This document shows positions 11,434 through 31,774 of a stretch of DNA of 64,000 nucleotides, one piece after another; within the stretch, counting starts at the first letter, position 1, and every line of letters starts with the position of its first letter. The stretch spans positions 704,595-768,594 of the forward strand of contig CAZQXB010000001.1 in the NCBI GenBank assembly GCA_964597575.1, read 5' to 3'. Source of the DNA: an uncultured Gammaproteobacteria bacterium. Its GTDB lineage: Bacteria; Patescibacteriota; Patescibacteriia; Magasanikbacterales; UBA922. The translations under genes and the position numbers were made by a program. The notes under the pieces are model-generated. The model was not told the DNA's origin. It was given only the letters and a program-made list of their open reading frames with translations, and made no database searches.

Positions 11434-11646
11434 ACACGATATTTAGAAAATTAAATACTACGTTGTAGTTATGCCCACACTATAACACAGGGGTCATGCG
11501 AAGGGCAATAGGTTATACACAGGGAGGAGGAGTGGTGCCAAGAAACATAAAAAACAACGAATACTTTTTCTCAAAGAAAAAAAGAAAACATCTTCCCCAT
11601 CATGAGAAAGTACTATATACTACGTTTCACTAACACGAACGAATAT

Positions 11647-13266
11647 ATGGCACTCTACCACAAGTACCGCCCTCAAACTTTTGCTGATGTTACTGGCCAA
11701 GAACACATAGTTCGAACAATCTCGAATCAAATTCGCACCAATACGCTCGGTCATGCGTATCTTTTCTCTGGACCTCGCGGGGTTGGTAAAACAACCACTG
11801 CCCGCCTCATTGCCAAAGCCGTCAATTGTGAAAAACGGTCCAAAGATATTTTCGAACCCTGCAATACCTGCACATCGTGCATCGAAATTACCGCTGGACA
11901 TGCTTTAGACGTTGTTGAAATTGATGCGGCGAGCCACACCGGTGTTGACCATGTGCGCGAACACATTATCGATAACGCTCGTTTCCGCCCTACAAAATCT
12001 CCGTTTAAAATATTTATTATCGACGAGGTCCACATGCTTTCCACCTCGGCGTTTAATGCGCTTCTAAAAACCCTAGAGGAACCGCCGGCGCATGTTGTAT
12101 TTATTTTAGCGACGACCGAACTTCAAAAAATTCCCGAAACCATTCTTTCCCGATGCCAACGATTTCAGTTCAAAAAAATGCCCTTTGACGACATGCGAAA
12201 GCATTTGCTCGATATCGCCAAGGCAGAAGATATTACAATTGACGATGAGCCGCTTCATCGCATTATTGCCAAAAGTGATGGTTCAGTACGCGATGCCATG
12301 AGCTTGCTCGACCAGCTCATCTCTTTGGGTGAAAAAAAGATTACTGAAGCGAACGCTGCTGCTATTCTCCCTCTCCATAATCTTGATACTGCGTTTCGCT
12401 TTATTGAAAAAACACTTCAAAGAAACCCGGTTGAAGCACTTCGCATACTTGATGCCGCAAGTGAAGCCGGAACATCATGGATTGATTTAGCCGACGACTG
12501 TGTCGTTATTGCGCGTCTCATGTGTATTGGCCGCGTTGGAGGGGATACAAGCCAAGTTGCCCTTCCTATTCCCAAATCCGTGGAAACATCTGCAGGGGCA
12601 CTGGGAAAAAATCTCTCCTCAAGCGAATTGATTCGTTTTATGGACATGCTCCTTTCGCGCCGGGCCGAAATTGCAAAAAGCCCTATCCCAGAACTTCCTT
12701 TTGAAATGCTCACTATTGCCTGGAGTGCCGAAGAAGAAAAAGGGCCACCTCTACCAACCACCAGCTCGATAAACGTTGCTTCGAAAAAAGTGGAACCGGA
12801 AAAAAAAGAGATTCCAGTTGTTTCAAAAAAAGTACTCGCCTCTGAAATGCCGTCACCACCCACTCCCCCTCCTGTTTCTCCTGTTCAACCAGTTGAAGAA
12901 ATAAAAAACAGTACCCCAGAAGAAACCGCGGCCCTTCCCCCACTTGATTTTGGAACGGTGCAGCTAAAATGGAAGCAATTGGTAAAGTCTCTTGAAACAC
13001 GCTCACCTTCATTGGTTTCTGTGCTTCACATGGCTCGCGTGGAAGGGGTCGAGGGAAGAACCATTACCCTTTCTGTCCCTTTTGCTTTTCACAAAGACAC
13101 GCTGGAGAGCAAAAACGGAAGACCGGCACTTGCTGCAGCCCTTCTTGAGCACTTTAATGGCCGGGCAGATCTTTCTATTCTTATCAAAGAAGAAAAAACA
13201 GACACCGCAGACCCAGATCTCGCGCATCTTGCTGCAGCATTTGGTGGAGAATTTGTATCCCCATAG
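11647..13266 (+). CDS. dnaX: DNA polymerase III subunit gamma/tau
   Basis: YRPQTFADVTGQEH, Walker A GPRGVGKTT, zinc module CxxCxxC (CNTCTSC), Walker B IFIIDEVHML, and sensor SRCQRF. The start was set at MALYHKYRPQTF. Confidence 0.9.
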   Translation: MALYHKYRPQTFADVTGQEHIVRTISNQIRTNTLGHAYLFSGPRGVGKTTTARLIAKAVNCEKRSKDIFEPCNTCTSCIEITAGHALDVVEIDAASHTGVDHVREHIIDNARFRPTKSPFKIFIIDEVHMLSTSAFNALLKTLEEPPAHVVFILATTELQKIPETILSRCQRFQFKKMPFDDMRKHLLDIAKAEDITIDDEPLHRIIAKSDGSVRDAMSLLDQLISLGEKKITEANAAAILPLHNLDTAFRFIEKTLQRNPVEALRILDAASEAGTSWIDLADDCVVIARLMCIGRVGGDTSQVALPIPKSVETSAGALGKNLSSSELIRFMDMLLSRRAEIAKSPIPELPFEMLTIAWSAEEEKGPPLPTTSSINVASKKVEPEKKEIPVVSKKVLASEMPSPPTPPPVSPVQPVEEIKNSTPEETAALPPLDFGTVQLKWKQLVKSLETRSPSLVSVLHMARVEGVEGRTITLSVPFAFHKDTLESKNGRPALAAALLEHFNGRADLSILIKEEKTDTADPDLAHLAAAFGGEFVSP

Positions 13267-15292: not shown

Positions 15293-15363
15293 TCGGGGAT
15301 CGTCTAACGGTAGGACTTCAGGTTCTGGTCCTGAATATCGGGGTTCGAATCCCTGTCCCCGAA
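15293..15363 (+). tRNA. tRNA-Gln (anticodon CTG)
   Basis: Hand-folded cloverleaf. Acceptor TCGGGGA/TCCCCGA with U1-A72, a Gln identity element. D stem GTCT/GGAC. Anticodon stem TCAGG/CCTGA with loop TTCTGGT (anticodon CTG). T arm CGGGG-TTCGAAT-CCCTG. Discriminator A, no encoded CCA. Confidence 0.8.
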
Positions 15364-16216: not shown

Positions 16217-17068
16217 ATGGCTGAACGAATCGACGGAATTGCTATTGCACACAACCTTGAAGGAGGTTTATTTCAGCGTGTCGAAGCATTAAAAAAACAA
16301 GCCATTACCCCAACCCTTGTCGTTTACCTTATTGGGAACGACAGACGATCTGAAGCCTACATTGCGAAAAAAGCTGCGGTAGCGGAGCGCGTTGGCATTA
16401 CGTTTATTCTTCGTCAATTTCCTCTTGAAACCACCACTGAAGCATTGTGCGAATATATTGAAAAAGACAATGACGATAGTGCCATTCACGCAATGATTGT
16501 TCAACTCCCGTTACCACCTCATATTGAAAAAGAAATGGTATTAAACACCGTCGCCGCAAAAAAAGATGCCGATTGTCTCACTTACGAAAACTTAGGCCGG
16601 CTCGTGAATGAAACCAATTTTCTTATTCCCCCAACTCCGGGTGCAGTACTGGCTATTTTAGAAAATCAACATGTTGATATTACAGGAAAAAATATTACTC
16701 TTGTGGGAACAGGCCAGTTGGTCGGAAAACCACTGTCGATTGTACTTATTCACACCAAAGCGAGTGTAACCACCTGCAATGAACAAACAAAAAACATTGT
16801 AGAAAAATGTCGTGAAGCTGATATTTTAGTTACCGGAGTCGGCAAACCAAACTTGATCACAAAAGACATGGTCAAACCCGGAGCTGTTGTAATTGATACC
16901 GGCACCTCATTCCTCAACGGAAAAATATCTGGCGATGTAATGTATGATGCAGTGGCAGAAGTTGCACGCGCCATTACTCCGACCCCAGGTGGGGTTGGTC
17001 CAATTACCGTCGCCAAGCTTCTTGAAAATGTTGTCATTTGTGCTGAGAGACAAACGAACAAACTCTAA
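16217..17068 (+). CDS. folD: bifunctional methylenetetrahydrofolate dehydrogenase / methenyltetrahydrofolate cyclohydrolase
   Basis: FolD-specific motifs: YxxSK region (SEAYIAKKAAVAERVGI), Rossmann GTGQLVGKPL and the C-terminal PTPGGVGPITVAKLLEN. Confidence 0.9.
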   Translation: MAERIDGIAIAHNLEGGLFQRVEALKKQAITPTLVVYLIGNDRRSEAYIAKKAAVAERVGITFILRQFPLETTTEALCEYIEKDNDDSAIHAMIVQLPLPPHIEKEMVLNTVAAKKDADCLTYENLGRLVNETNFLIPPTPGAVLAILENQHVDITGKNITLVGTGQLVGKPLSIVLIHTKASVTTCNEQTKNIVEKCREADILVTGVGKPNLITKDMVKPGAVVIDTGTSFLNGKISGDVMYDAVAEVARAITPTPGGVGPITVAKLLENVVICAERQTNKL

Positions 17069-17620: not shown

Positions 17621-18610
17621 TTACGAATGATTTTCACCTACAACGAGTTGCAAATACTCTTCTAAAAGAAGATCGAGTTCAGAAATAAGTGATACACGCA
17701 TCAATTTTCCACGCAATTCTTTCATACCAGGAATAACTTCGCCCATTTTGGTTGCTTTAAAATACCACGACAAATGTTTGCGGAAAGTCGTCATCCCCTT
17801 TTCTCCATACTGAAGCACATGCAACTGCGCATGTTCGCGGATAACTCGTACCCGTTCATCTGGAGTAACAACAAATGTAGGATCAAGCGCTTCTTTAAAA
17901 AACCAAGGATTACCAAGAGCACCGCGCGCGATAAGAACTCCATCAGCTTTGGTAATATCGAGCGCTTCCTGTACCTGCTTCGCTTCATGAATATCGCCAT
18001 TTGCTAAAAGCGGTACCGGAGAAATTTTTTTTGCTTCAGCAATACGTGCCCAATCACTCTTTCCGCTATAGCTCTGTTCTTTGGTTCGACCGTGCACGGT
18101 AATAAGCTCGGCTCCGGCTTCTGCAACGACAGGAATAAATTTTTTGAAATCATCAGGATCTTTCCAGCCTAAACGAATTTTTATAGAAAGCGGTGTCGTG
18201 CCAATCGCTTGTTTTATTTCACGAATAATAGCCGCAGCACGTTCGGGTTCTTTCATAAGGGCGCACCCATTGAAGTTGCTGGTAATTTTATACACCGGGC
18301 AGCCCATGTTAATATCGATTCCCTCAGGCTTCGCATGCTCCATCACAATCGCAGCAGCGCGCGCCATGGTCAACGGATCGGAACCAAAAATCTGTTGTAC
18401 AATGGGTCGTTCAGCAGGCACAAAATCAGTCATGCCGAGGGTTTTTGCATTATTCCGAACGAGAGCCTCTGAGGAGACCATTTCGCGAAATACCACATCT
18501 GCTCCACCAATATTTCTGACCACTTGGCAAAAGGCAGAATCAGTCATATCTGCCATGGGTGACAGAGCTAAAATACGACCATTATTTTTGAGAATATCTT
18601 GGATCCACAT
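17621..18610 (-). CDS. dusB: tRNA-dihydrouridine synthase
   Basis: Dus TIM-barrel motifs: LSPMADMTDSAFCQV, IDINMGCP, catalytic-Cys region, and KIRLGW..D at the FMN site. Confidence 0.85.
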   Translation of the reverse strand: MWIQDILKNNGRILALSPMADMTDSAFCQVVRNIGGADVVFREMVSSEALVRNNAKTLGMTDFVPAERPIVQQIFGSDPLTMARAAAIVMEHAKPEGIDINMGCPVYKITSNFNGCALMKEPERAAAIIREIKQAIGTTPLSIKIRLGWKDPDDFKKFIPVVAEAGAELITVHGRTKEQSYSGKSDWARIAEAKKISPVPLLANGDIHEAKQVQEALDITKADGVLIARGALGNPWFFKEALDPTFVVTPDERVRVIREHAQLHVLQYGEKGMTTFRKHLSWYFKATKMGEVIPGMKELRGKLMRVSLISELDLLLEEYLQLVVGENHS

Positions 18611-18912: not shown

Positions 18913-20349
18913 TTAGGAATCGAGTATATGGCCGGAATCGGTCATGTACCGTCGCGGAGCAGGCTTGTCTGGTGCTGGGGTTGGCTCTACAGACTTCTTC
19001 TCTTCAACCATGACACCCTGCGGCAAAACCATACCCAGACCCTCAACTGGCAAGTCTGACGGCGGCTCGGTTTTCTTCGCCCCAGCTTTTTGTAAGAGTG
19101 GTACCCGCACGTGAGACATTGGAAAGTGCCAAATTGTGGCCAGCTCTTCAATATTCAACACAAATGATTTCAAAATTTTTCCCATGGCCCGTTCTTTATA
19201 GGCCTGCATAATTTTTCGCTTGCGTTCATTTTTTATTCTATCAGCAAACAAATATTTGGTACTGGTGAGGTATTTTGGTAAAAGTGCATTCGAGGTGGGG
19301 TTGTTAAACTGATTGATCGCCCCGATAAGCGAATTCACCCCACGCGCCGGGTTAAATATCTCTTTCCGAGCCACATAAATCATGCGAATTTTTGTTTTGT
19401 ACCCAATTTTACTAATTTTATCTTCCATGGCTTCGACCAATTTTTTCTGCCCTGGAGTAAGGTATTGCATTTTATTTTGATCACTTTTTCCCTCTTTTGC
19501 GGCCCCCTCTCCCCCACCTAAAAACTCACTTCCAACCAACTGTGGCCCAAAAACGTTTGCAGCCTGGATTGGAATATCTAAGGCTTTTCCTAAAAAACCC
19601 TGTTTTTTAGGCTTTTTCTTTTCTCCAATAAGCTTATTAATCTCCTCAATAGAATCCTTTTTCCACTCTTTATCAGGGGTCGGCTCAATCACCATCTGGT
19701 ACCACATCTGTTCGCCCGGACCAATGCGACTGAAACTTTCCAAGAATGTACCCATCGGATCTTTCACTGGCGCATCTTTATCAACCATGTGCTCGAAATC
19801 ACGGTATACCCGAAGCGGGTAGGCATCAGGCGCCACCAACTTAAACTCAGCCCCCCACATATTATATGTTTTGTCAGGGTAGTGCTCGGGAATTCCCTTG
19901 GTGTAATCTTCAATTTCCGTAATTTCAGCTTCAGGGTATTGTGCATAAAGTGCCGCCTCCATAACGTCACGGTACTGTTCTAAAACCCGCACGACAAACT
20001 GGATATACCCCTCGATACTTACAATTTCAAAACTGAACGAAAAAGGTTCAAACCCTCGCCGATACATGAGGGCGATAGCATTCCCTTCGTAAATAGAAAA
20101 AATATGAGCGAACATTTGCTCAACCGCTTTTGGTGTCTGAACATTGAGCTGCGGAACATCAATCGCAAGGTGTACCCAACGCCACTTATCAACATATTTT
20201 TTATTCTTGTAGAAAGCCAATAAAAAAAGACCGCCTTTCAAAAGTAAGGCCGCAACAAGAATCCAAGCCCCGGCAGTAAAAAGTCGCGTCAAAGCGACAA
20301 CGGGCGGAGCCGTAACCTCACGCATGACAAGAAAGAGAAACTCTTCCAT
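18913..20349 (-). CDS. membrane-anchored paralog of the N-terminal domain of the 855-aa ATPase, lacking the ATPase
   Basis: 478 aa with TM helix AGAWILVAALLLKGGLFLLAFY. It aligns along its whole length with residues about 30-420 of ORF 7864-10431, including the conserved blocks AQYPEAEITEIEDY and IWHFPM...EPPSDLPVEG. It ends where the ATPase module begins in the long protein. Confidence 0.65.
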   Translation of the reverse strand: MEEFLFLVMREVTAPPVVALTRLFTAGAWILVAALLLKGGLFLLAFYKNKKYVDKWRWVHLAIDVPQLNVQTPKAVEQMFAHIFSIYEGNAIALMYRRGFEPFSFSFEIVSIEGYIQFVVRVLEQYRDVMEAALYAQYPEAEITEIEDYTKGIPEHYPDKTYNMWGAEFKLVAPDAYPLRVYRDFEHMVDKDAPVKDPMGTFLESFSRIGPGEQMWYQMVIEPTPDKEWKKDSIEEINKLIGEKKKPKKQGFLGKALDIPIQAANVFGPQLVGSEFLGGGEGAAKEGKSDQNKMQYLTPGQKKLVEAMEDKISKIGYKTKIRMIYVARKEIFNPARGVNSLIGAINQFNNPTSNALLPKYLTSTKYLFADRIKNERKRKIMQAYKERAMGKILKSFVLNIEELATIWHFPMSHVRVPLLQKAGAKKTEPPSDLPVEGLGMVLPQGVMVEEKKSVEPTPAPDKPAPRRYMTDSGHILDS

Positions 20350-20359
20350 AGGAAGAACG

Positions 20360-20521
20360 CTATACCTCGATTAAGGTATAAATTGCCCAATAGATCACAG
20401 CAACACCAAGGCCACTCCACCACCATCCGAACTGGCCCGATTTATAACCGGCCACAAAAAAAACAATGGCAACAAGAGTTCCAACCAGTGCGATCATGTG
20501 TCGCACGGCATTTTCTGACAT
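20360..20521 (-). CDS. small 2-TM membrane protein (53 aa) between secF and the paralog gene
   Basis: MSENAVRHMIALVGTLVAIVFFVAGYKSGQFGWWWSGLGVAVIYWAIYTLIEV has two hydrophobic helices. It is below the 60-aa ORF-track cutoff. There are 8 nt between its stop and the start of the downstream gene. Confidence 0.35.
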   Translation of the reverse strand: MSENAVRHMIALVGTLVAIVFFVAGYKSGQFGWWWSGLGVAVIYWAIYTLIEV

Positions 20522-20611
20522 AAAACGGAATACAAAAAAACAATCACGATGCTATAGAACAGTATACTACACGAGAGCTGCCTTCGGCAAGGAAAAAAGA
20601 ATTCCCTTTCG

Positions 20612-21553
20612 TTATGCTCGACGACGCATTTGCCAGTTGTTGAGCGTCACAAGAAGTGGGCTCGCCAGGAAGATAGAAGAATATGCCCCGGCAAAGATAC
20701 CAACGATGAGTGTTAGAGCAAAGTTGTGGATGCTCTCACCGCCAAAAAAGAAGATCGCGAGCAAACTCAGTTCAGCGGTGAACGAGGTATTAAAGGAACG
20801 AATGACCGTCTGGTTCACACTCATTTCGACGGTATCGTCAAAATTCGCAGTTCCTCGGCGTAGGATGTTCTCACGAATTCGATCGAAAACAATGATCGTA
20901 TCGTTTACGGAATACCCAAGAATCGTCAAAAGGGCTACCACAATAGGAATGTCAATCTCGAGCCCTGCAAATCTCCCCAAAACCGACAACACCCCCATGG
21001 TGATAAGAATATTATGGATTAAAGCAATAATAGCAATTGCCCCATACTTCCACGAAGTAACAGGCTGAGATACTTTTCTGAAGGTGTAAGCAACGTAGAG
21101 AATGATACCAAGTAATACTGCGGCTGTAGCAGCTACGGCGCGATTTCGAAGTTCAACGCTAATTGCTGGACCAACCTTCTCAAAACGGTCTTCGCGAAAA
21201 GCGGCAGCCAACTCTTCTGCCCCAGTAGCACCAGTAAGCTCTGAAAGCTCATTGAGCACATTCTGGTGTTCTTCTTCAGACAAGAAGCGCATGCGCAAAA
21301 TGTACCCATTGTCGCCCGTTGTTTGAGCAACCACCTGGTCAATTCCAGCTTCACGCACCTCAGCAATCACAGCCTCTTGACTCGGACGCTCCTGTAGATA
21401 CGTAACCGCAACAAGCGATCCACCAGTGAAATCAATCCCTGGTTTTAATCCAAAGATCACGAGCACCACAATACTTGCGATCGATAAGACGCTTGAGATA
21501 AAGAATGGAATCGAACGGTATCGGACAATCTTAAACGTAAACATAGTCATCAT
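20612..21553 (-). CDS. secF: protein translocase subunit SecF
   Basis: GIDFTGGSLVAV and a six-TM RND-like C-terminus. Its start codon overlaps the secD stop. Confidence 0.85.
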   Translation of the reverse strand: MMTMFTFKIVRYRSIPFFISSVLSIASIVVLVIFGLKPGIDFTGGSLVAVTYLQERPSQEAVIAEVREAGIDQVVAQTTGDNGYILRMRFLSEEEHQNVLNELSELTGATGAEELAAAFREDRFEKVGPAISVELRNRAVAATAAVLLGIILYVAYTFRKVSQPVTSWKYGAIAIIALIHNILITMGVLSVLGRFAGLEIDIPIVVALLTILGYSVNDTIIVFDRIRENILRRGTANFDDTVEMSVNQTVIRSFNTSFTAELSLLAIFFFGGESIHNFALTLIVGIFAGAYSSIFLASPLLVTLNNWQMRRRA

Positions 21554-23598
21554 TATGATTTTCGTTTCTTCGCTCCTAAAAAGAGCCGATTACCATGTTC
21601 AGGAAACCATGGCACCATAAAACGAAGAATAACACGGGTAACGGTAATTGCGGAAAACATACTCACAAACACCCCGATAATCAGAACGAAGGCAAACCCT
21701 TTCACGAAACTAGAACCGAACCACAGAAGTACGACACAGGTAATAATCGCTGACACATTACCATCATGAATGGCGTTCCATGCTCGATCAAACCCTTCTT
21801 CAACGGCCTTAAACAACGATTTTCCACCCTGAAGTTCTTCTTTTAATCGCTCAAAGATAAGGACATTGTTATCAATCGCCATACCCATAGAAAGAATGAG
21901 ACCGGCAATACCCGATAACGTGAGGGTTACCCCAAAGAGTTTAAAGAGGGCAAGTGTAAGCACGGTGTAGAGGGCTAAACTGAGTGTCGCAATGAGACCA
22001 GGCAATCGGTATACTGCGACCATGAAAATCGCAATAAGAGTGAGCGCAGCCAAACCTGCTTTCAAACTAAGGGTAAGGGAATCAAGTCCGAGGGTCGCTC
22101 CAACCTGCTGCTGACTCACGAGCTCAACCGGTACAGGCAAGGCTCCGGCATTCAACTGTTGGGTCAACAATTTCGCTTCAGCAAAGGTAAAGCCTCCTTG
22201 AATGACGGCTCGGCCATCACTAATGACGGTTTGTACAACCGGTGCACTAATAGGGTTATTATCGAGGAAGATTCCCACTTGTTTCCCCAAATTGCGTTCC
22301 GTAATTTCACGGAAAAGGTCGCGACCTTCGTCGTTAAACTGAAGTGACACCATAACCGCACCGGTTTGCTGGTCACTCACCACTTCTGCGCGTTTAAGCT
22401 GAGAGCCAGAAAGTTTTGTTGGCTTCCAACCGTTATTTGGTGGAACAATATCGTCTTTTGTTTTGGTGGCTACAAAAACATGAGAAAGCTCATATTCTTT
22501 TTCAGGTCCTTCGCTAATCTTATAGATAACATGGTACCCGAATTCTGTTTCGACCGGTCCAATAATTTCTCCGGCTTTGGCTGCTGAAACTGCATCGTCA
22601 AAAGCTTTTACCATTTGACCTTTCGTAAAGCTACCTAAGTCACCGCCAGTTTGTGCGGCCCCAGGTTCTGTTGAGTATTTTTTCGCAAGTTCACTAAAAT
22701 TCTTCGCATTCGCTTCTTTAAAAATATCTTCGGCTTTCTTTCGCGCCTCTTCTTTCGTATACAGTGGCTCGTCACATCCCTGCGACCCTAAATAGCAGAA
22801 TAAAATATGTTTTGCCGCAATAACTGGCGCACCATCGCGTTCTCCCCCGCGCTTTAATATATGGTACCCGAGTGGTGTTTCAATAAGCGTCTGTGATGTT
22901 TGGTCGGGTTTTGCACTCTCAGCCCAGGTGTACATATTTTCATACACCGTTCGCTTATTCACAAAACCAAGATTACCAGCGAGATCCTTACTTTGCGTAT
23001 CATCGCTTAACTCTTTTGCAAGAGTTGCAAAGTCTTCCCCTTTTTTCACGCGAGCAAGAGTGGTATTCGCTTTTTTAAGCGCTTCTGCATTAAAGTCGGC
23101 CAATTGTTTTTCTTCTTCAGCAGTTAATGCACGCGCTGGCTCGTTTGATGGTTCACGAAAATCCAAAATTGGCGTTTCTCCAATCAAACGAATTGCTTGT
23201 GTAATATCTTGAACTCCAGGAAGTTCAACGAGAATACGGTACGCATCCCCTACTTTTGTAGTCTGGACATTCGACTCTGCCACACCGAACGCATTCACCC
23301 GGCGCTCAATAACACCACGCACACCCTCTACGGAATCGGCTTGGTCAGCAGCCGGAAGGCTTGTCACATTTGCCTCATATACTAACTGCGCGCCCCCTTG
23401 TAAATCGAGCCCCAAAGAGAACGATTTTGGTGGAATCCGAGGGATACCGAGCGCAATACTTCCATTGACCGCATCAATAGCTTTATTCGCATAGGCCGGA
23501 AAAATATACACGGCGCAAGCTACGATAAGCACAAAAATACCCGCAATTCCCCATCGGACCTTCGCACGAACTTCAGCTGCAGAAAGTGTTTGTTTCAT
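21553..23598 (-). CDS. secD: protein translocase subunit SecD with two inserted parvulin-type (PpiC) peptidyl-prolyl isomerase domains
   Basis: N-terminal TM, LGLDLQGGAQLVYEA (SecD P1 motif), and a C-terminal six-TM bundle. The periplasmic region holds two rotamase modules: DFATLAKELSDD...LAGNLGFVNK...ETPLGYHILK and NFSELAKKYSTEPGAAQTGGDLGSFTKGQMVKAFDDAV...GPVETEFGYHVIYK. Confidence 0.85.
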   Translation of the reverse strand: MKQTLSAAEVRAKVRWGIAGIFVLIVACAVYIFPAYANKAIDAVNGSIALGIPRIPPKSFSLGLDLQGGAQLVYEANVTSLPAADQADSVEGVRGVIERRVNAFGVAESNVQTTKVGDAYRILVELPGVQDITQAIRLIGETPILDFREPSNEPARALTAEEEKQLADFNAEALKKANTTLARVKKGEDFATLAKELSDDTQSKDLAGNLGFVNKRTVYENMYTWAESAKPDQTSQTLIETPLGYHILKRGGERDGAPVIAAKHILFCYLGSQGCDEPLYTKEEARKKAEDIFKEANAKNFSELAKKYSTEPGAAQTGGDLGSFTKGQMVKAFDDAVSAAKAGEIIGPVETEFGYHVIYKISEGPEKEYELSHVFVATKTKDDIVPPNNGWKPTKLSGSQLKRAEVVSDQQTGAVMVSLQFNDEGRDLFREITERNLGKQVGIFLDNNPISAPVVQTVISDGRAVIQGGFTFAEAKLLTQQLNAGALPVPVELVSQQQVGATLGLDSLTLSLKAGLAALTLIAIFMVAVYRLPGLIATLSLALYTVLTLALFKLFGVTLTLSGIAGLILSMGMAIDNNVLIFERLKEELQGGKSLFKAVEEGFDRAWNAIHDGNVSAIITCVVLLWFGSSFVKGFAFVLIIGVFVSMFSAITVTRVILRFMVPWFPEHGNRLFLGAKKRKS

Positions 23599-23936
23599 AA
23601 ATTCAAGAAAGTGGGCCTATTGTACGCGAATTTTGGCCTTTTCGTCAACTGCGGTTTATGCACACGATATTGACATATGGCAACGATCATGATATTCCTT
23701 ATTTTAACGATGAAACCGAAAAGCACTCACCCACCCACCGGAAAGCGAAAAAGAAAGGAGCATCGAAAAAAAACTCGACGTTACTCGAAGAATGGCCGGA
23801 AGCGCATGCGGCGATGGCTCGCTGTCATCTGCAGTGAAAGCCGTTGGTGGCGCCAAGAGGCTATCGAGACTACCAGTGGGCGTCGTCGACACGATCCGGA
23901 ATAGAGTCCGGAACGCGCTGGCCGGTATTCGTAAGA

Positions 23937-24008
23937 AATCACCCGCCAACTCGTTATCTCCCTTACCCTAGCGGTAGGAGGGAAAACGAGCGGGTGATTT
24001 TTTATTTC
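23937..24008 (+). terminator. plus-oriented intrinsic terminator closing a GC-rich structured intergenic segment
   Basis: 10-bp outer stem AATCACCCGC/GCGGGTGATT encloses a nested hairpin TCCCTTACC..GGTAGGAGGGA, followed by TTTTTATTTC. Both flanking CDS (secD, secA) are on the minus strand. Confidence 0.45.
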
Positions 24009-24016
24009 ACCCCCGG

Positions 24017-26779
24017 TTACGCCCCATGACACTTCTTAAACTTCTTTCCCGAGCCGCATGGGCACATATCATTTCGCCCCACTTTTTGTTGTGCGTCCGC
24101 TGCTCCTGCAACTGGCGGGGGTGCTGCTGTTTCTTTGGTTGCACCGCTTAGCGTTAGTGTGTCGGTCGCCATAATCGTCGGCGCAACTTGAATACCAATA
24201 TTCACCTTGAAGAATCCGTAGACGACTTCTTTCTGAATGTTTGCTAAAAGTTCATTAAACATGCGGAAAGTTTCTTTCTTATACTCAACGAGCGGATCAC
24301 GTTGACCGTAGCCACGAAGGCCGATACCGGCACGCAAATGATCAATGGAAACGAGATGATCAACCCACAAGGTATCGATCGCACGAATAAGTACTCCTGA
24401 TTCAATATCGCGCATCGTTATGTGTGCTGCTTCAGGCGAACTTGAGGCACCCTGAATTGCTTGCTCCATCTGCGTATATGTTTTTACCGCTAACCCAAAT
24501 AAAAATTCAACAATTTTTTCACGCACTTCCACGTCGCCAAGCTTTCCATCTTCACGCTTTGTAAATGCGAGAAGTGTTGCTTTTTCTTCATCACTGACCG
24601 GAAACATGGTCCGAGCGGTTTCATACACTTCCTGCATGTTCCACTCCCCGCTTTCGGTGTTGGTATGGAACCCAACCACGAGTTCAATTTCTTTTTGCAT
24701 CATGTCGAGCACCATGCCTTTACTTGGTCGCGTATCAGACACTTCTTTCACATCAAGCAGCTCTAACACCTGACGACGTTTCTTATAAATCACATCGCGG
24801 TGTTTGTTCAACACATCATCGTATTCAAGCAAATGCTTACGCGTATCAAAGTGATGCGATTCTACCTTCTTCTGCGCTGATGCCAAAATTTTTCCAAGAA
24901 TCGGCTGTTCAATCGGTAAATCTTCCGGAACATTCAAACGGGTCATCACATTTTTCATTCTGTCTCCTGCAAAAATGCGCATGAGTTCATCTTCTGTTGA
25001 AATGAAAAATTGTGTTTCCCCTGGATCCCCTTGGCGGGCACTGCGTCCACGGAGCTGATTATCGATACGACGAGACTCATGACGCTCCGTACCGAGAACA
25101 AACAACCCACCGGCACTGAGAACCTTCTCATGCTCCTCTTTATTCATGGGGGTACCACCGAGTTTAATATCTACCCCGCGCCCAGCCATGTTCGTCGCCA
25201 AAGTCACGGCTCCCGGGCGACCTGCCTGCGCAATAATCTCCCCCTCACGCTCATGATTCTTCGCATTTAAAAGTTCATGCTGAATTCCTTGGGCTTGCAA
25301 ATACATGCTGAGTTGCTCATTTTTTTCAACCGAAGCTGTACCAATAAGCACTGGCTGACCCTTCGCGCGAGTTTCTTTTACTTTTGCCACAATGGCCTTG
25401 AACTTCGCCGCTTCTGTTTTATAAATACGATCGGTTTGGTCGATTCGACGATCCGGCTTGTTGGTTGGAATAACCACGACTTCCACATTATAAATTTTTC
25501 CAAGCTCTTCAGCTTCCGTAGCCGCTGTACCTGTCATACCAGAAAGTTTCTTGTACATGCGGAACAAGTTCTGGAACGTAATCGTCGCAAGTGTCTGGCT
25601 TTCTTTTTGAATTTTTACTCCTTCTTTCGCTTCAATGGCTTGATGCAAACCTTCGCTATAACGACGACCTGGCATTTTGCGGCCGGTAAATTCGTCGATG
25701 ATAACCACTTCACCCTTATCGACGACGTATTCTTTATCGCGCTTAAAAAGAACCTCGGCCTTGAGCGCCTGTTCAATGTGGTGGACGAGGCGAATACCGC
25801 CTTCAGCGTAAATATTTTCTACCCCAAGCCAACCTTCAAATTTATGAATGCCTTCTTCCGTTAAAGAAACGCTGCGCAACTTTTCATCAACATTATAATC
25901 GGTTACCTTATCAAGCTTCCGCGCAAGATCTGCAAATTGATAATACTGTTCTGTGGCCTCCATTGAAGGAGCCGAAATAATAAGCGGGGTGCGGGCTTCA
26001 TCAATTAAAATGGAATCCACTTCGTCGACAATGGCATAATGCATTTCGTTCCCCGGGCGCATCACCATGTCGGAAACGCGCTGCACCATGTTGTCGCGCA
26101 AATAATCGAAGCCATATTCGTTGTTCGTGCCGTAAGTAATGTCACAACGATACGCTTCTTGACGAGTCGCTGGGCGTAAAAATTCGTATTCTACTTTGAA
26201 ACTCCCTAAATCGTCGCGTTCTTTATCGGCTTCACTTCCCTCAGCAACTTTCGCTGCTTCTTCCGGCGGTTTCGCAAAACCTGCATCGTACACATACGTA
26301 ACACGCTGGTTTTGAATCACCCCAACACTAAGCCCAAGGAATGCATAAATCTGCCCCATCCAAACTGCATCACGGCGTGCCAAATAATCGTTCACCGTTA
26401 CCACATGCACGCCCTTTCCCTCTAACGCATTTACATAGGTCGGAAGAGTTGCGGTCAGCGTTTTTCCTTCACCGGTTCTCATTTCTGCAATCTGCCCTTT
26501 GTGGAGCACTAAGCCACCGATAAGCTGAACATCGTAATGCCGCATCCCAGCCACACGTTTCGCCGCTTCTCGGACGGTAGCAAACGCTTCCGGTAAAATA
26601 GCATCGGTGGTTTCTCCGTTTTGAAGTCGCGCTTTAAATTCAGCGGTTTTCGCTTTGAGTGCTTCATCAGAAAGAGCAGAATAGCTCGATTCAAGCTCGT
26701 TTATTTTTTTAACAACAGGATCAAGTGTTTTCAGTACTTTTGCATTCGGATCTCCAAGTAATTTCGTAAGAAAAGACAT
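24017..26779 (-). CDS. secA: preprotein translocase ATPase SecA
   Basis: DEAD-like motor motifs (MRTGEGKTL, DEVDSILIDEARTPLII), the preprotein cross-linking and helical scaffold domains, and a C-terminal Zn finger CPCGSGKKFKKCHG. The start was set at MSFLTKLLGD. Confidence 0.9.
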   Translation of the reverse strand: MSFLTKLLGDPNAKVLKTLDPVVKKINELESSYSALSDEALKAKTAEFKARLQNGETTDAILPEAFATVREAAKRVAGMRHYDVQLIGGLVLHKGQIAEMRTGEGKTLTATLPTYVNALEGKGVHVVTVNDYLARRDAVWMGQIYAFLGLSVGVIQNQRVTYVYDAGFAKPPEEAAKVAEGSEADKERDDLGSFKVEYEFLRPATRQEAYRCDITYGTNNEYGFDYLRDNMVQRVSDMVMRPGNEMHYAIVDEVDSILIDEARTPLIISAPSMEATEQYYQFADLARKLDKVTDYNVDEKLRSVSLTEEGIHKFEGWLGVENIYAEGGIRLVHHIEQALKAEVLFKRDKEYVVDKGEVVIIDEFTGRKMPGRRYSEGLHQAIEAKEGVKIQKESQTLATITFQNLFRMYKKLSGMTGTAATEAEELGKIYNVEVVVIPTNKPDRRIDQTDRIYKTEAAKFKAIVAKVKETRAKGQPVLIGTASVEKNEQLSMYLQAQGIQHELLNAKNHEREGEIIAQAGRPGAVTLATNMAGRGVDIKLGGTPMNKEEHEKVLSAGGLFVLGTERHESRRIDNQLRGRSARQGDPGETQFFISTEDELMRIFAGDRMKNVMTRLNVPEDLPIEQPILGKILASAQKKVESHHFDTRKHLLEYDDVLNKHRDVIYKKRRQVLELLDVKEVSDTRPSKGMVLDMMQKEIELVVGFHTNTESGEWNMQEVYETARTMFPVSDEEKATLLAFTKREDGKLGDVEVREKIVEFLFGLAVKTYTQMEQAIQGASSSPEAAHITMRDIESGVLIRAIDTLWVDHLVSIDHLRAGIGLRGYGQRDPLVEYKKETFRMFNELLANIQKEVVYGFFKVNIGIQVAPTIMATDTLTLSGATKETAAPPPVAGAADAQQKVGRNDMCPCGSGKKFKKCHGA

Positions 26780-26905
26780 ACAAGTGAATAGGGATGTAAC
26801 ACGTCGGAGTGTAGCACTTCCCCTCGCTATTGGCAACCCCAAAAAATGCAAAAGGACAGATGGGGATCTGTCCGGAGAAAAGAAAACGAGGGTTCTTTAA
26901 GAGCT

Positions 26906-27983: not shown

Positions 27984-28163
27984 GAACAATCCTCTCCTTG
28001 CCCAAGGTTGGGCGCCGCACCTGCCAAAAACGACAGATGACTTTTGAGAATACTTGAGTTGCACCAAAAAGTCAAGGCAAAACTTCTTCAATTATAAAGA
28101 GCGTAGAGGGTGATCTACGCTCGGGGAAGAACTCCCGGGAATGGAACGGTATCGGCGTGGGCG

Positions 28164-28763
28164 CTAGAGGGAGATGACCTCGGCGACGCTGCCGAAGGGT
28201 CCGATTCGGACGAACCGGATGTCCGCGACCTTCATGGTGTGGGGGTGGTCGGGGTACTCGCCCCTGAAACCACGCTCATCGTGGGCCAGGGTGAGGTGCG
28301 GGCGCCACTGCCCGCTGACCAGAGGATGTCCGTACTTTTGCACGTTTTCCTGCTGTTCAGGGGTCAACTCGAGCTTCTCCTCGGCCTGTCGCCCGGTCGA
28401 GATGGTCTGGTCACGAAAGTCCGCGATGGCGAGAGCCGCATGGTGCGCCCGGAAGAGGATCCTCGTCAACCTCTCGTTCCCCCTCCACATCACATCCCAG
28501 AAGAGGAACTTTTTCCCGAACTGAGCCAGTGGGCCGAGCGGGATCTCGGTGCCGGAGGCGAGCTCATGCCGACAGTCCTCGAGAATCTCGCGCGCCCGGG
28601 TAACGGACAGCCCTACCACGGACGTGTGGTACAGGGTCAGGTGGGGCAGAGGCGTCTGGAAGCGTGCCCGGTCCGCATATTGGGTGATGAGCCTCTCCAC
28701 CTCTGCCTGGGTGGCTGGGTCAGGGCGGACGACAAAGCCGTACGCTCCACTGTATGAGTTCAT
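28164..28763 (-). CDS. 2H phosphoesterase superfamily protein (LigT / 2'-5' RNA ligase-like)
   Basis: Two H-x-T-x motifs (PHLTLYH and PHLTLAH) spaced about 100 aa apart are the hallmark of the 2H family. About 63% GC with strong GC3 bias. Confidence 0.55.
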   Translation of the reverse strand: MNSYSGAYGFVVRPDPATQAEVERLITQYADRARFQTPLPHLTLYHTSVVGLSVTRAREILEDCRHELASGTEIPLGPLAQFGKKFLFWDVMWRGNERLTRILFRAHHAALAIADFRDQTISTGRQAEEKLELTPEQQENVQKYGHPLVSGQWRPHLTLAHDERGFRGEYPDHPHTMKVADIRFVRIGPFGSVAEVISL

Positions 28764-28890
28764 CTCGTGTCCTCTTTCTGCAAGCAGGATCGCTTGCGAT
28801 TTCTAATCTCTATATACCAAAAAAAAGCTTAAAAGTCAATAATTTAGCTCTCACCCTTCCACATATTCACAAGTCAAACCCTTCTTCCTC

Positions 28891-28919
28891 TTGACAAAAT
28901 ACTAATAAAATGATAAGAT
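28891..28919 (+). promoter_or_regulatory. sigma70-type promoter for gene 29002-29706
   Basis: TTGACA, a 17-nt spacer ending in TG (extended -10), then TAAGAT. The surrounding 140 bp is AT-rich inside a GC-rich island. SD GGGAGGG lies 10 nt before the ATG at 29002. Confidence 0.45.
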
Positions 28920-29001
28920 CGCCTGTCTGTGTACGTCTTTAACCTACATTAGGAAAAGATGCGATGCGCAGAAGGACAAGGCCCTAGGGAGGGCAACGAC
29001 A

Positions 29002-29706
29002 ATGAACAACAACCAGACCAACAAGACCGCCGTGCTGGTGCACGGCATGTTCCTCCAGGCCAAAGGCTGGGAGGAGAACGTCTGGGGCAACACCCAGACC
29101 GGCAAGCTCGGGCGCCTGCCCACGGCCGTGCTCATGTTCGAGAAGTACAGCGCGACCACCATGATCTTCGGCACCGGTGCCAGCATGGAGGGGGACGAGA
29201 AGGAGTCCCAGTTCACGTACCGGACGCTCATGGAGCGGTTCAACGACCTGCGCAACTTCAAGCAGTTCGAGGGCATCGACCTCGTGGCGCTGCGCGAGCG
29301 GATCTCGGCGGGCCGGGTGATCGACACCGAGACGCAGAACACCCTGCAGGAGGTGCAGGCCGCGGCGCGGGCCTGCAACGAGCGCGGGAACACCGACCTG
29401 ATCCAGGTCTCGTCCCCGAGCCACCTCCCCCGCTGCATCCGCGATGGGGTGAAGGCGCTCCAGGCGGCGGAGTTCGCCGGCAAGAAGCCGACGCTCCTCG
29501 CCACCGCGAGCGAGGTCTACTACAGCGGCGCGACCGACGACGACACGCTCATCGTCGAGTACCCCCACCGGGCCGACAGCCCGGCCGAGTACTACGCCCT
29601 GCACGCGGTGCTGAAGCGGCTCATGCCCGCGTTCTACCCCGCCAAGGTCACGGCCGAGGTGCGGAACCGCATCATCGCCGGCATCGACAAGGTCCTCCAG
29701 GGCTGA
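29002..29706 (+). CDS. hypothetical protein, possibly DUF218/YdcF-like (extreme high-GC gene)
   Basis: 234 aa. This is the only frame with normal amino-acid composition; the overlapping long frames are Arg/Gly/Pro-rich artefacts. GC3 is near 95%. There is weak resemblance to YdcF/DUF218 (VLVHGM..., MIFGTGAS, VSSPSHLPRC). Confidence 0.5.
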   Translation: MNNNQTNKTAVLVHGMFLQAKGWEENVWGNTQTGKLGRLPTAVLMFEKYSATTMIFGTGASMEGDEKESQFTYRTLMERFNDLRNFKQFEGIDLVALRERISAGRVIDTETQNTLQEVQAAARACNERGNTDLIQVSSPSHLPRCIRDGVKALQAAEFAGKKPTLLATASEVYYSGATDDDTLIVEYPHRADSPAEYYALHAVLKRLMPAFYPAKVTAEVRNRIIAGIDKVLQG

Positions 29707-29942
29707 TCGCACCTGCCCGCAACCTCTTCCCGTTCTCTACTATCGAGAGCGACGTGAGGTCCCACCTACCGGGCATTCGCCCACCGTCCCTCCATCGACC
29801 ACGTCGGTGCGAGGGACTCTTTTTTTACAAAAAGTATCCACCGAGGTGGATTTTTTGATATTGACAAATACGCGAAAATGTGGTATATTACCTTGCTTCT
29901 GTGATTGAAGATAACCTATTTAACCGTCCTAGGAGGGACATC

Positions 29943-30823: not shown

Positions 30824-31774
30824 TTAAATAATTTGGACCTCTTCAACGAGGGTAACTCCAAAGGTATCGTACACGTTCTGCTTTACCTTATCAATGAGTA
30901 TTAAAATTTCTTCAGCCGTAGCCCCGCCTGAATTTAAAATAAAATTTCCGTGCTTTTCACTCACAATAGCTTTTCCTTCTGTCATCCCTTTGGCTCCCGA
31001 TTTTTCAATAAGCCAACCCGCTGACACCAGCCCCTTTTCTTTAAATTCCGGTAAAAGTTCTGGGGCACCTTCTGGAATTTTCGTGCATTCTTCTACAGAA
31101 ACATTTTTGAAAATACACCCGGTCGAAAATCCTTGCGGCTGCGTTCGAATCCGAAACGCCACATAGTCCAAAGCCTTCTTGCGGGCATCACTATTCGAAC
31201 CCGATTGAAGTGCGAGTGTTACCCGAAGAACAACAGCAGACGATGTTTTGAATACGCTATGACGATAATGAAAATCGCAAGCACTTTTTTCATACTGAAC
31301 GACTTCTCCACGATCATACACCATCACACTTTCAACCGACCCGCTCATTTCACTCCCGACCGCTCCGGCATTTCCCCGCACCGCCCCACCAATCGTCCCA
31401 GGAACCCCGACCCCCCACTCAAAACCGGTTAGGCCTGCCTTTATACTCTCATCGGCCACCGCTGCAGTAACACAACCCGCGTCAGCGTACACTTTTGTGC
31501 CTTCAATCGTTATCGCCTGTGCGGCAATTTTGAGAGCCACACCAGAAAAACCAGCATCTCGAACAAGCATATTACTTCCCCCACCGAGAAGAAAAAAAGG
31601 GATACCCTCAGCTTCTAGGTATTGAAGTGCTTCGACTGCTTTTTCCACGGTGGTAACCACAAGAAGAACATCAACCGGACCACCAATTTTAAAGGTAGTG
31701 TACTTTGCGAGAGGTTCGTTCACGCGAACCTTCCCAAAGGTTTTTAGTATGGCGACTTGATCGAGTGAAATCAT
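30824..31774 (-). CDS. murB: UDP-N-acetylenolpyruvoylglucosamine reductase
   Basis: FAD-binding TTFKIGGP...LLGGGSNML, catalytic Ser region, and C-terminal MurB domain. Confidence 0.9.
   Translation of the reverse strand: MISLDQVAILKTFGKVRVNEPLAKYTTFKIGGPVDVLLVVTTVEKAVEALQYLEAEGIPFFLLGGGSNMLVRDAGFSGVALKIAAQAITIEGTKVYADAGCVTAAVADESIKAGLTGFEWGVGVPGTIGGAVRGNAGAVGSEMSGSVESVMVYDRGEVVQYEKSACDFHYRHSVFKTSSAVVLRVTLALQSGSNSDARKKALDYVAFRIRTQPQGFSTGCIFKNVSVEECTKIPEGAPELLPEFKEKGLVSAGWLIEKSGAKGMTEGKAIVSEKHGNFILNSGGATAEEILILIDKVKQNVYDTFGVTLVEEVQII

Follow-up and report, generated by a model that had tools for sequence, protein, structure and literature searches.

The P1 head of SecDF binds preproteins as they emerge and, driven by the proton motive force (PMF), swings from one conformation to another. 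It is an open question how polypeptides that leave SecYEG reach their folding factors. The SecYEG-SecDF-YidC holo-translocon is bound by SurA, whose two parvulins sit on the SecDF P1 head in all AlphaFold models (Troman et al. 2023, PMC9987972), a contact that so far rests on low-resolution electron microscopy and AlphaFold models. In E. coli, PpiD/YfgM associates with SecYEG (PMC9643414). In M. pneumoniae, the Sec translocon including SecDF is capped by PrsA-like peptidyl-prolyl isomerase (PPIase) lipoproteins that have been cross-linked to SecD, and this dome (Mdp/Mpn444, 436 and 489 with SecDF) was called unique to Mycoplasmas by its authors (bioRxiv 10.1101/2025.04.25.650208; 10.1101/2024.09.05.611430). 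It is the only high-confidence coupling of SecDF to PPIases so far. Here we describe a secD gene whose product carries two parvulin-type PPIase domains inserted into the P1 domain itself. The gene lies in a 64,000-nucleotide stretch, hereafter the window, of contig CAZQXB010000001.1 (assembly GCA_964597575.1, positions 704,595 to 768,594, forward strand), deposited as an uncultured Gammaproteobacteria bacterium and assigned by GTDB to the Patescibacteriota (Magasanikbacterales, UBA922), part of the Candidate Phyla Radiation (CPR).

The secD gene is a single unbroken reading frame of 681 amino acids on the minus strand of the window. The first-pass annotation, made from the DNA letters, had described a SecD with two parvulin modules embedded in its periplasmic head, and the motifs it quoted (LDLQGGAQL, ELAKKYSTEPGAAQTGGDLGSFTKGQMVKAFDDAV...FGYHVIYK and LGYHILK) are all present in the translation. 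The parts of the gene, from the N-terminus to the C-terminus of the protein, are as follows, with transmembrane helices abbreviated TM and AlphaFold2 abbreviated AF2.

21553..23598, minus strand: secD, intact open reading frame (ORF) of 681 amino acids carrying the parvulin insert; TIGR01129, 370.7 bits
23491..23553, minus strand: TM1, approximately residues 16-36, hydrophobic stretch WGIAGIFVLIVACAVYIFPAY within AF2 helix 7-32; N-terminal membrane anchor
23143..23424, minus strand: N-terminal part of the P1 base, residues 59-152, with the GG motif LDLQGGAQL, SecD_1st and the hinge strand ILDFRE (145-150)
22834..23130, minus strand: parvulin 1 (outer), residues 157-255, helix 1 to strand 4 without an N-terminal strand 1; PF00639, 63.7 bits
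22501..22833, minus strand: parvulin 2 (inner, canonical order), residues 256-366; PF13616, 98.6 bits when scanned alone; predicted competent PPIase
22465..22500, minus strand: return strand, residues 367-378, EYELSHVFVAT, which would provide the strand 1 missing from parvulin 1; H373 is the dyad partner of H246
22129..22419, minus strand: beta-sheet subdomain of the P1 head, residues 394-490, intact; PF22599, 91.2 bits, profile positions 19-114 of 114
21604..22128, minus strand: TM2-TM6 RND-type bundle, residues 491-665; PF02355 (SecD_SecF_C) at 491-661, 57.7 bits

The product is a genuine SecD in which the P1 base, the P1 head, the TM bundle with its proton-pathway Asp and the partner SecF are all intact. 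Its score against the NCBIfam SecD equivalog TIGR01129 lies well above the cutoff of 244.4 bits, and the scores of PF21760, PF22599 and PF02355 each exceed their own cutoffs. Within the P1 base, PF21760 matches residues 92-150 (57.1 bits) and PF07549 matches residues 60-76. The AF2 helices and the Pfam layout give a topology of TM1, a large P1 domain and a five-helix bundle with an Asp in TM4, and TM1 would, by homology to T. thermophilus SecDF (3AQP), put the following P1 domain outside the cytoplasm. The C-terminal bundle, first taken to hold six helices, comprises TM2 through TM6, while TM1 is N-terminal. In the alignment to 3AQP (GMAIDNNVLIFERLKEE versus GAAVDGNVLSFERIKEE), D576 stands opposite T. 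thermophilus D340, a residue reported to be essential there (Tsukazaki et al. 2011), and D576 is invariant in alignment A1. The secF gene abuts secD, as it does in loci L001-L003 and L081-L083.

The insert spans approximately 220 residues between the P1 base and the P1 head. Pfam matches along the protein run in the order SecD_1st (92-150), two Rotamase/Rotamase_3 stretches, SecDF_P1_head (394-489) and SecD_SecF_C (491-661), with whole-protein E-values of 2.4e-43 and 1.2e-40 for Rotamase/Rotamase_3. A Rotamase scan inside SecD had been set as a test beforehand. Each module also passes the Pfam thresholds when scanned alone (63.7 bits for PF00639 and 98.6 bits for PF13616), far above chance. 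With such profile matches and SecD segments flanking them in frame, the proposed fusion of a folding-catalyst module into SecD is borne out as an architecture.

SecD residues 59-159, which include the P1 base, align to residues 32-126 of T. thermophilus SecDF (3AQP), and residues 382-659 align to 147-423 in one stretch; the head segment 382-497 also aligns to residues 113-226 of the isolated P1 domain 3AQO. The insert comes directly after the hinge strand ILDFRE, whose Thermus counterpart is VLEFRIV, at the entry to the P1 head, and the double parvulin takes the place of a segment of approximately 20 residues (T. thermophilus ~127-146) between this strand and the head sheet. Because the head sheet (394-490) is intact and only this short post-hinge segment is replaced, the parvulins decorate the P1 head and hinge, which settles a question raised with the original description. 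A reading in which they replace the P1 head was rejected on the basis of the Pfam layout and the 3AQP alignment. The original placement inside the periplasmic head is correct with respect to the P1 domain, but the site is the junction of base and head, at the N-terminal edge of the head and not within its sheet. A full-length AF2 model assigns the parvulins predicted local distance difference test (pLDDT) scores of 86-93, with an overall predicted TM-score (pTM) of 0.38. Foldseek searches with this model return SecDF structures at the top, followed by SurA and then by isolated parvulin domains.

Residue conservation was evaluated in two sets of proteins, namely the 120 best homologues of this SecD (drawn from NCBI, JGI, ENA and Logan assemblies, and called orthologues below) and 35 diverse representatives with less than 50% identity to each other. 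Parvulin 2 has the canonical order of strand 1, helices 1-3, strand 2, helix 4 and strands 3-4. When scanned alone, it scores 98.6 bits with PF13616 (cutoff 22.5) and 84.0 bits with PF00639. Its best PDB sequence match is SurA (E 6.4e-20), with the best stretch in the SurA P2 parvulin domain, where E311 aligns with an Asp. Structural matches from Foldseek include the Pin1 PPIase domain 4TNS_B (TMt 0.83, root-mean-square deviation (rmsd) 2.5 A, 119 columns) and PrsA 2JZV (TMt 0.84), and the matches to Pin1 and PrsA PPIase domains span TMt 0.81-0.84 overall.

The reference active-site residues were H59, C113, S111/S154 and H157 of Pin1 and S152, D154 and H199 of PrsA; PrsA S152, D154 and H199 and Pin1 S111, C113 and H157 are listed in bioRxiv 10.1101/2024.09.05.611430. 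Parvulin 2 carries the His dyad, the Ser and an acidic residue at the Cys/Asp position (H264, S309, E311 and H356), with S309, E311 and H356 as the counterparts of the three PrsA residues and of S111, C113 and H157 in Pin1. H264 is kept in 120/120 orthologues, S309 and H356 in 119/120 each, and position 311 is acidic in all of them (D in 98 and E in 22, the present protein being among the latter). The hydrophobic proline pocket is likewise maintained in the orthologues, with L321 in 117/120, M329 in 108/120 and F333 in 120/120. The 264/356 pair is H/H in 31 of the 35 diverse representatives, and two of the four exceptions lack both residues. Judged by these residues, parvulin 2 is most likely a catalyst of prolyl cis/trans isomerisation that also binds unfolded chains.

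A further feature of parvulin 2 is a pair of cysteines, C268 and C275, in the loop after strand 1 (window 22774-22797). Both are present in 120/120 orthologues. In the diverse set, 14 representatives have both and 21 have neither, whereas a single cysteine never occurs, so that the two positions covary perfectly. This both-or-neither pattern makes a disulfide likely and fits an extracytoplasmic location; a Cys268-Cys275 disulfide probably stabilises the loop. A Cys pair of this type is not known from characterised parvulins.

Parvulin 1 is also recognised when scanned alone (PF00639, 63.7 bits against a cutoff of 21.7, profile positions 10-94 of 97), and its best PDB sequence matches are archaeal and PrsA parvulins (E 6e-7). 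It does not follow the canonical strand order. The present protein has S198, D200, H246 and H373 in this domain, but His at both dyad positions is a minority state. Position 246 is N in 84/120 orthologues, with the GGDLG motif turned into NGGY[LMI]G, and positions 246 and 373 covary, being N/R in 82 and H/H in six of the seven proteins with H246. The dyad is degenerate in 34 of the 35 diverse representatives, so the earlier description of the upstream copy as the more degenerate one holds in both sets. Conservation rises from parvulin 1 (0.61) to parvulin 2 (0.71) and the SecD core (~0.80). Parvulin 1 (residues 157-255 plus the return strand 367-378) appears to be a circularly permuted and largely degenerate parvulin, with a probable role as a scaffold or holdase surface.

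An AF2 model of the insert only (107 sequences; pLDDT 92.6, pTM 0.74) gives a rigid, rod-like pair linked by a beta-ribbon. Both this model and the full-length model contain unbroken 24-residue strands at 244-267 and 354-377, and these strands therefore indicate a long antiparallel ribbon joining both parvulins. In this predicted wiring, strand 4 of parvulin 1 would continue as strand 1 of parvulin 2, and strand 4 of parvulin 2 would continue as the return strand (368-377), completing the sheet of parvulin 1. The AF2 models and the coupling of conserved positions thus suggest that the catalytic-type parvulin 2 is nested in a circularly permuted parvulin 1. This reading draws on the full-length superposition of canonical-order parvulins on the model (the Pin1 match above), and on the behaviour of 264/356 as one constrained pair while 246/373 degenerate together. 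Covariation of 246/373 to H/H was down-weighted as independent evidence for nesting because the six H/H sequences may be one clade, and the argument leans instead on the 264/356 pairing across diverse representatives. Foldseek found no solved structure that covers both domains in the modelled geometry (TMq <= 0.38; SurA at 13-16 A rmsd).

SecD proteins with one parvulin inform on the permutation. In these, the hinge strand leads directly into helix 1, and a His-bearing, strand-1-like segment follows strand 4 before the head begins, as in '...FGYHIIKK-loop-EISASHILFKT...', where the strand ASHILF is homologous to the return strand. The parvulin of these proteins is circularly permuted, as can be read straight from their sequences. 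The H/H dyad and the Asp are kept in P0128, P0136, P0137, P0141, P0148, P0157 and the Moranbacteria protein of locus L003 (5521-7233).

The architecture is widespread. All 120 best homologues have the same SecD plus Rotamase Pfam content, at 57-76% identity and lengths of 672-716 amino acids, and those with names are annotated as 'protein translocase subunit SecD' of Candidatus Magasanikbacteria or of the Patescibacteria group; these names point to a Magasanikbacteria-like CPR bacterium as the source of the window. A HMMER search of 1.84 billion cluster representatives yielded 13,408 matches at E<=1e-10. The best 150 of these were parsed with profile hidden Markov models (HMMs) built from the parvulin-SecD family, and 68 of the 150 have at least one parvulin at the same SecD site, in at least four architecture classes:

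SecD with two parvulins, ~655-705 amino acids
SecD with one parvulin, ~560-625 amino acids
Fused SecDF with one or more parvulins, ~1,015-1,100 amino acids
Forms with still larger inserts, 340-470 amino acids

Besides Magasanikbacteria, the fusion occurs in Peribacterales/Peregrinibacteria and, with one parvulin, in Moranbacteria (L003); Peribacterales was the one organism name obtained for 10 cluster representatives that were looked up. A profile search with parvulin plus head returned only proteins of <=454 amino acids, many of them multi-parvulin, and the fusion fragments among them gave the lineage names Uhr-, Komeili-, Falkow- and Buchananbacteria and the Parcubacteria group. A survey of GTDB genomes with the generic parvulin motif [EK][TS][EQV]FG[YFW]H[IV]I found ordinary parvulins from many phyla at 76 of 80 loci, the fusions being L001-L004, and so added little to the taxonomic breadth. 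The architecture was said at the outset not to be standard for SecD, which is true relative to the characterised SecD/SecDF of T. thermophilus, D. radiodurans and E. coli, but several CPR lineages have it as a rule. Most proteins with the insert group together in a crude neighbour-joining tree calculated from the SecD core alone; this grouping would fit, no more than suggestively, a single early gain that was elaborated later. Neither a SecD-parvulin fusion nor a circularly permuted parvulin was found described in the searchable full-text literature, the coverage of which leaves out many subscription papers. The design is therefore undescribed in the searchable literature but widespread, a new combination of known domains with a predictable function.

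Magasanikbacteria-type SecD proteins also occur in metagenome-assembled genomes labelled Gammaproteobacteria (L001) or Kapabacteria (P0064), probably through mis-binning or mislabelling. Contig-end fragments of parvulin SecDs (P0314, P0317, P0320 and P0359) are named 'peptidylprolyl isomerase, partial'.

We propose that the insert works in cis as a foldase or chaperone where chains leave the translocon, with parvulin 2 as the catalytic and substrate-binding part and parvulin 1 as a scaffold or holdase surface, and we assign this reading a probability of roughly 0.7. The protein should keep its role in translocation because the SecD core and the partner SecF are intact, and family membership predicts that it should stimulate Sec translocation in a PMF-dependent manner. 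It would thus still be an accessory driven by protons that takes hold of polypeptides as they leave SecYEG and pulls on them. The parvulin module would ride on or beside the moving P1 head, perhaps coupled to its movement, and nascent secreted proteins would meet a foldase or chaperone in cis on leaving the channel. Such a module could take over the task that falls, in trans, to PrsA in monoderms, to PpiD/YfgM and SurA at the E. coli translocon and to the PrsA-like dome lipoproteins on SecDF of Mycoplasma. We infer the enzymatic or chaperone activity of the insert from residue conservation only. No second parvulin was found within the 64-kb window.

Several points weigh against this proposal. 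The full-length model has a low pTM (0.38), so any position it gives the module with respect to P1 head, SecY exit and membrane would be tentative. Two side-by-side permuted domains, each closed by a hairpin of strand 4 and strand 1, are a possible alternative to the nested arrangement favoured by the models, and the strand 4-loop-strand 1 hairpin of single-parvulin SecDs would also permit them. Parvulins of translocon-associated chaperones can be catalytically dead, as in PpiD and the first parvulin of SurA, and such chaperones can often work in vivo without PPIase activity. Finally, that the fusion compensates for a reduced repertoire of free chaperones is plausible as a hypothesis only.

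A more elaborate version of the proposal is a CPR 'pull-and-fold' machine, in which an active parvulin nested in a permuted, degenerate one, a wiring without precedent among solved parvulins, sits on the proton-driven P1 head, and PMF-driven swings are coupled to the capture, isomerisation and release of substrates, replacing free chaperones of the PrsA, PpiD or SurA type. As a natural Rosetta-stone fusion, it would also confirm the still hypothetical contact between the SecDF P1 head and the tandem parvulins of SurA in E. coli. We regard this full version as tentative and, taken as a whole, rather doubtful.

The strongest competitor to a foldase or chaperone in cis, though an unlikely one, is a non-catalytic holdase or structural extension that gives the P1 head a larger polypeptide-binding surface or lets it reach further, for instance through the wall zone of a monoderm CPR envelope, with isomerisation playing no physiological role. 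The predicted module is indeed rigid and rod-like with its beta-ribbon, most relatives have lost the His dyad and the GGDLG motif of parvulin 1, and the PpiD parvulin and the first SurA parvulin are known to be inactive yet functional. In distant lineages parvulin 1 is barely recognisable, and extra non-parvulin material lies at the site, within inserts of 340-470 amino acids. However, the catalytic set of parvulin 2 is near-invariant in the 120 orthologues and kept in 31/35 diverged representatives, and the single-parvulin forms also retain H/H and the Asp. Such constraint on catalytic residues would be unexpected of a pure spacer and disfavours the non-catalytic reading.

We give considerably less credence to a docking or regulatory domain unrelated to folding, which would recruit a DUF8128 membrane protein or cell-wall machinery, or gate the P1 head. 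The conserved gene order of secD, secF, a small ORF and the DUF8128 gene hints at an extra partner, and an insertion at the hinge could influence head swinging, but nothing connects DUF8128 with parvulins and the conserved residues are those of the parvulin substrate and catalytic pocket, with no novel surface. An artefact can be dismissed, whether an assembly chimera or a frameshift joining a prsA-like gene to secD (the first-pass annotation had named a frameshifted prsA as a way for its reading to fail): nothing in its favour was found beyond the NCBI naming of some contig-end fragments as PPIases, the parvulins lie in one frame between SecD segments, NCBI has the identical protein on a 913,817-bp contig and a separate Logan assembly has it too, all 120 closest homologues share layout and length, and hundreds of same-length orthologues have the same architecture.

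The surroundings of secD in the window include the following features.

20612..21553, minus strand: secF, 313 amino acids; TIGR00966, 261.9 bits (cutoff 160)
23619..23648, minus strand: promoter-like site TTGACG-N18-TACAAT, 21 nucleotides upstream of the secD ATG, with 10/12 consensus matches
24017..26851: secA, upstream of secD across a spacer of 418 nucleotides

The secF and secD genes overlap by 1 nucleotide or, with an alternative start, are separated by 2 nucleotides; secF is also among the gene calls of L081, L082 and L083. Directly after secF lies a gene for a 478-amino-acid membrane protein (18913-20349, minus strand), precomputed as DUF8128 (PF26449) and without a match in the Pfam copy that was scanned; an ORF of 45-53 amino acids within 20350-20611 precedes it. 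The order secD-secF-small ORF-DUF8128 is kept in L081, L082 and L083, and the ORFs that follow secF in L001 and L002 share 46% and 39% identity with the DUF8128 protein, which could be a further partner of this SecDF.

The spacer between secA and secD (23599-24016, 418 nucleotides) is GC-rich and contains a long imperfect palindrome (~23940-24005) just after the secA stop codon. Its predicted folding is stronger than that of shuffled sequences on both strands (z -3.0 and -3.5), and the spacer has no credible Rfam match. Only the promoter-like region, in the last ~60 nucleotides, is conserved in close relatives (86-90% identity, L082 and L083). Conservation is not apparent for an 81-amino-acid upstream ORF (23704-23949), and L083 has no secA upstream of secD. 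A structured RNA or an arrest-peptide leader in the spacer is thus unsupported, given the Rfam result, the confinement of conservation to the last ~60 nucleotides and the location of secA in L083.

Elsewhere in the window, a GC-rich island (~28100-29900; 59% versus ~45% elsewhere) has ORFs open on both strands and may be horizontally acquired DNA. Its likely genes are an ORF at 28164-28763 (minus strand) with two H-x-T-x motifs (HLTLYH and HLTLAH), which looks like a 2H phosphoesterase/LigT-type protein, and an ORF at 29002-29706 (plus strand). The sole island ORF scanned against Pfam (28959-29858, plus strand) gave no match. A tRNA (15293-15363, plus strand) is the only Rfam match at gathering threshold in the window, and the neighbours Dus (17621-18610), FolD (16217-17068), DnaX (11602-13266) and MurB (30824-31774) represent a typical small-genome housekeeping context.

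The coupling of SecDF to PPIases in Mycoplasma was deemed specific to that group. An in-frame fusion that is widespread and old in another radiation with reduced genomes would offer independent evolutionary evidence that the moving SecD head and parvulin foldases share substrate and place. Structural and biochemical work on translocation-coupled folding could use the parvulin SecD as a compact system in one polypeptide. The fusion also adds a trait to the poorly understood envelope biology of CPR bacteria and presents a predicted circularly permuted, nested parvulin topology. Genome annotation hides the fusion, in that full-length copies are named 'SecD' and fragments are named as partial peptidylprolyl isomerases.

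Compared with canonical SecD and SecDF structures (T. thermophilus 3AQP and 5YHF; D. radiodurans 5XAM, 5XAN and 5XAP; E. coli SecD 5MG3), the present protein shares TM1, the P1 base, the P1 head and TM2-6, and it likewise has the TM4 Asp and a separate SecF (E 5e-73 to 3AQP). The solved structures, however, have no enzyme domain in P1, where this SecD has two parvulins.

PrsA (B. subtilis 4WO7, S. aureus 2JZV) is likewise an extracytoplasmic, membrane-tethered parvulin that acts on Sec substrates, with a shared S-x-D...H pattern and fold. In contrast to this SecD, PrsA has a lipobox and an NC dimerisation and chaperone domain; the N-terminus of the present protein is SecD TM1 without a lipobox, and the tether is SecD itself. 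The PrsA family models (PRK03095, PRK03002, PRK00059 and others) give 71-96 bits against cutoffs of 303-361, over the parvulin parts only. The SurA model PRK10770 reaches 68.2 bits against a cutoff of 394 and aligns across both modules with SurA residues 192-379 only. Membership in the PrsA or SurA families was therefore rejected, as the HMM scores fall far below cutoff and the chaperone core domains are not there.

SurA nonetheless resembles the insert in having two tandem parvulins, one degenerate and one active, and a proposed contact with the P1 head at the SecYEG exit. It differs in being soluble, with an N/C chaperone core and a contact in trans, whereas the present SecD lacks that core and its link is covalent. 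The relative geometry of the two SurA parvulins also differs from that of the SecD module (rmsd 13-16 A). Furthermore, SurA serves outer-membrane proteins, whereas CPR bacteria are not known to possess an outer membrane. The PpiD/YfgM-SecYEG complex (PDB 8ZHT) likewise has a membrane-anchored, parvulin-containing chaperone at the translocon exit, but PpiD, in which the parvulin is inactive and the chaperone domains are large, is a single-pass protein of its own that binds SecY and is not part of SecD, and its structural match to the SecD module is weak (TMq 0.28). The Mycoplasma dome is similar in that a bacterium with a reduced genome and no outer membrane couples parvulin-type PPIases to SecDF and the translocon, and its parvulins are also discontinuous in sequence. 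It is, however, a non-covalent cage of very large lipoproteins, whereas the SecD described here carries a compact module fused in cis. Parvulin chaperones gather in trans at SecDF and the translocon exit, and a foldase or chaperone in cis is therefore the best supported function of the insert. On this comparison, the fusion most likely turns into a covalent link the kind of association seen between SurA and SecDF, between PpiD and SecYEG and in the Mycoplasma dome.

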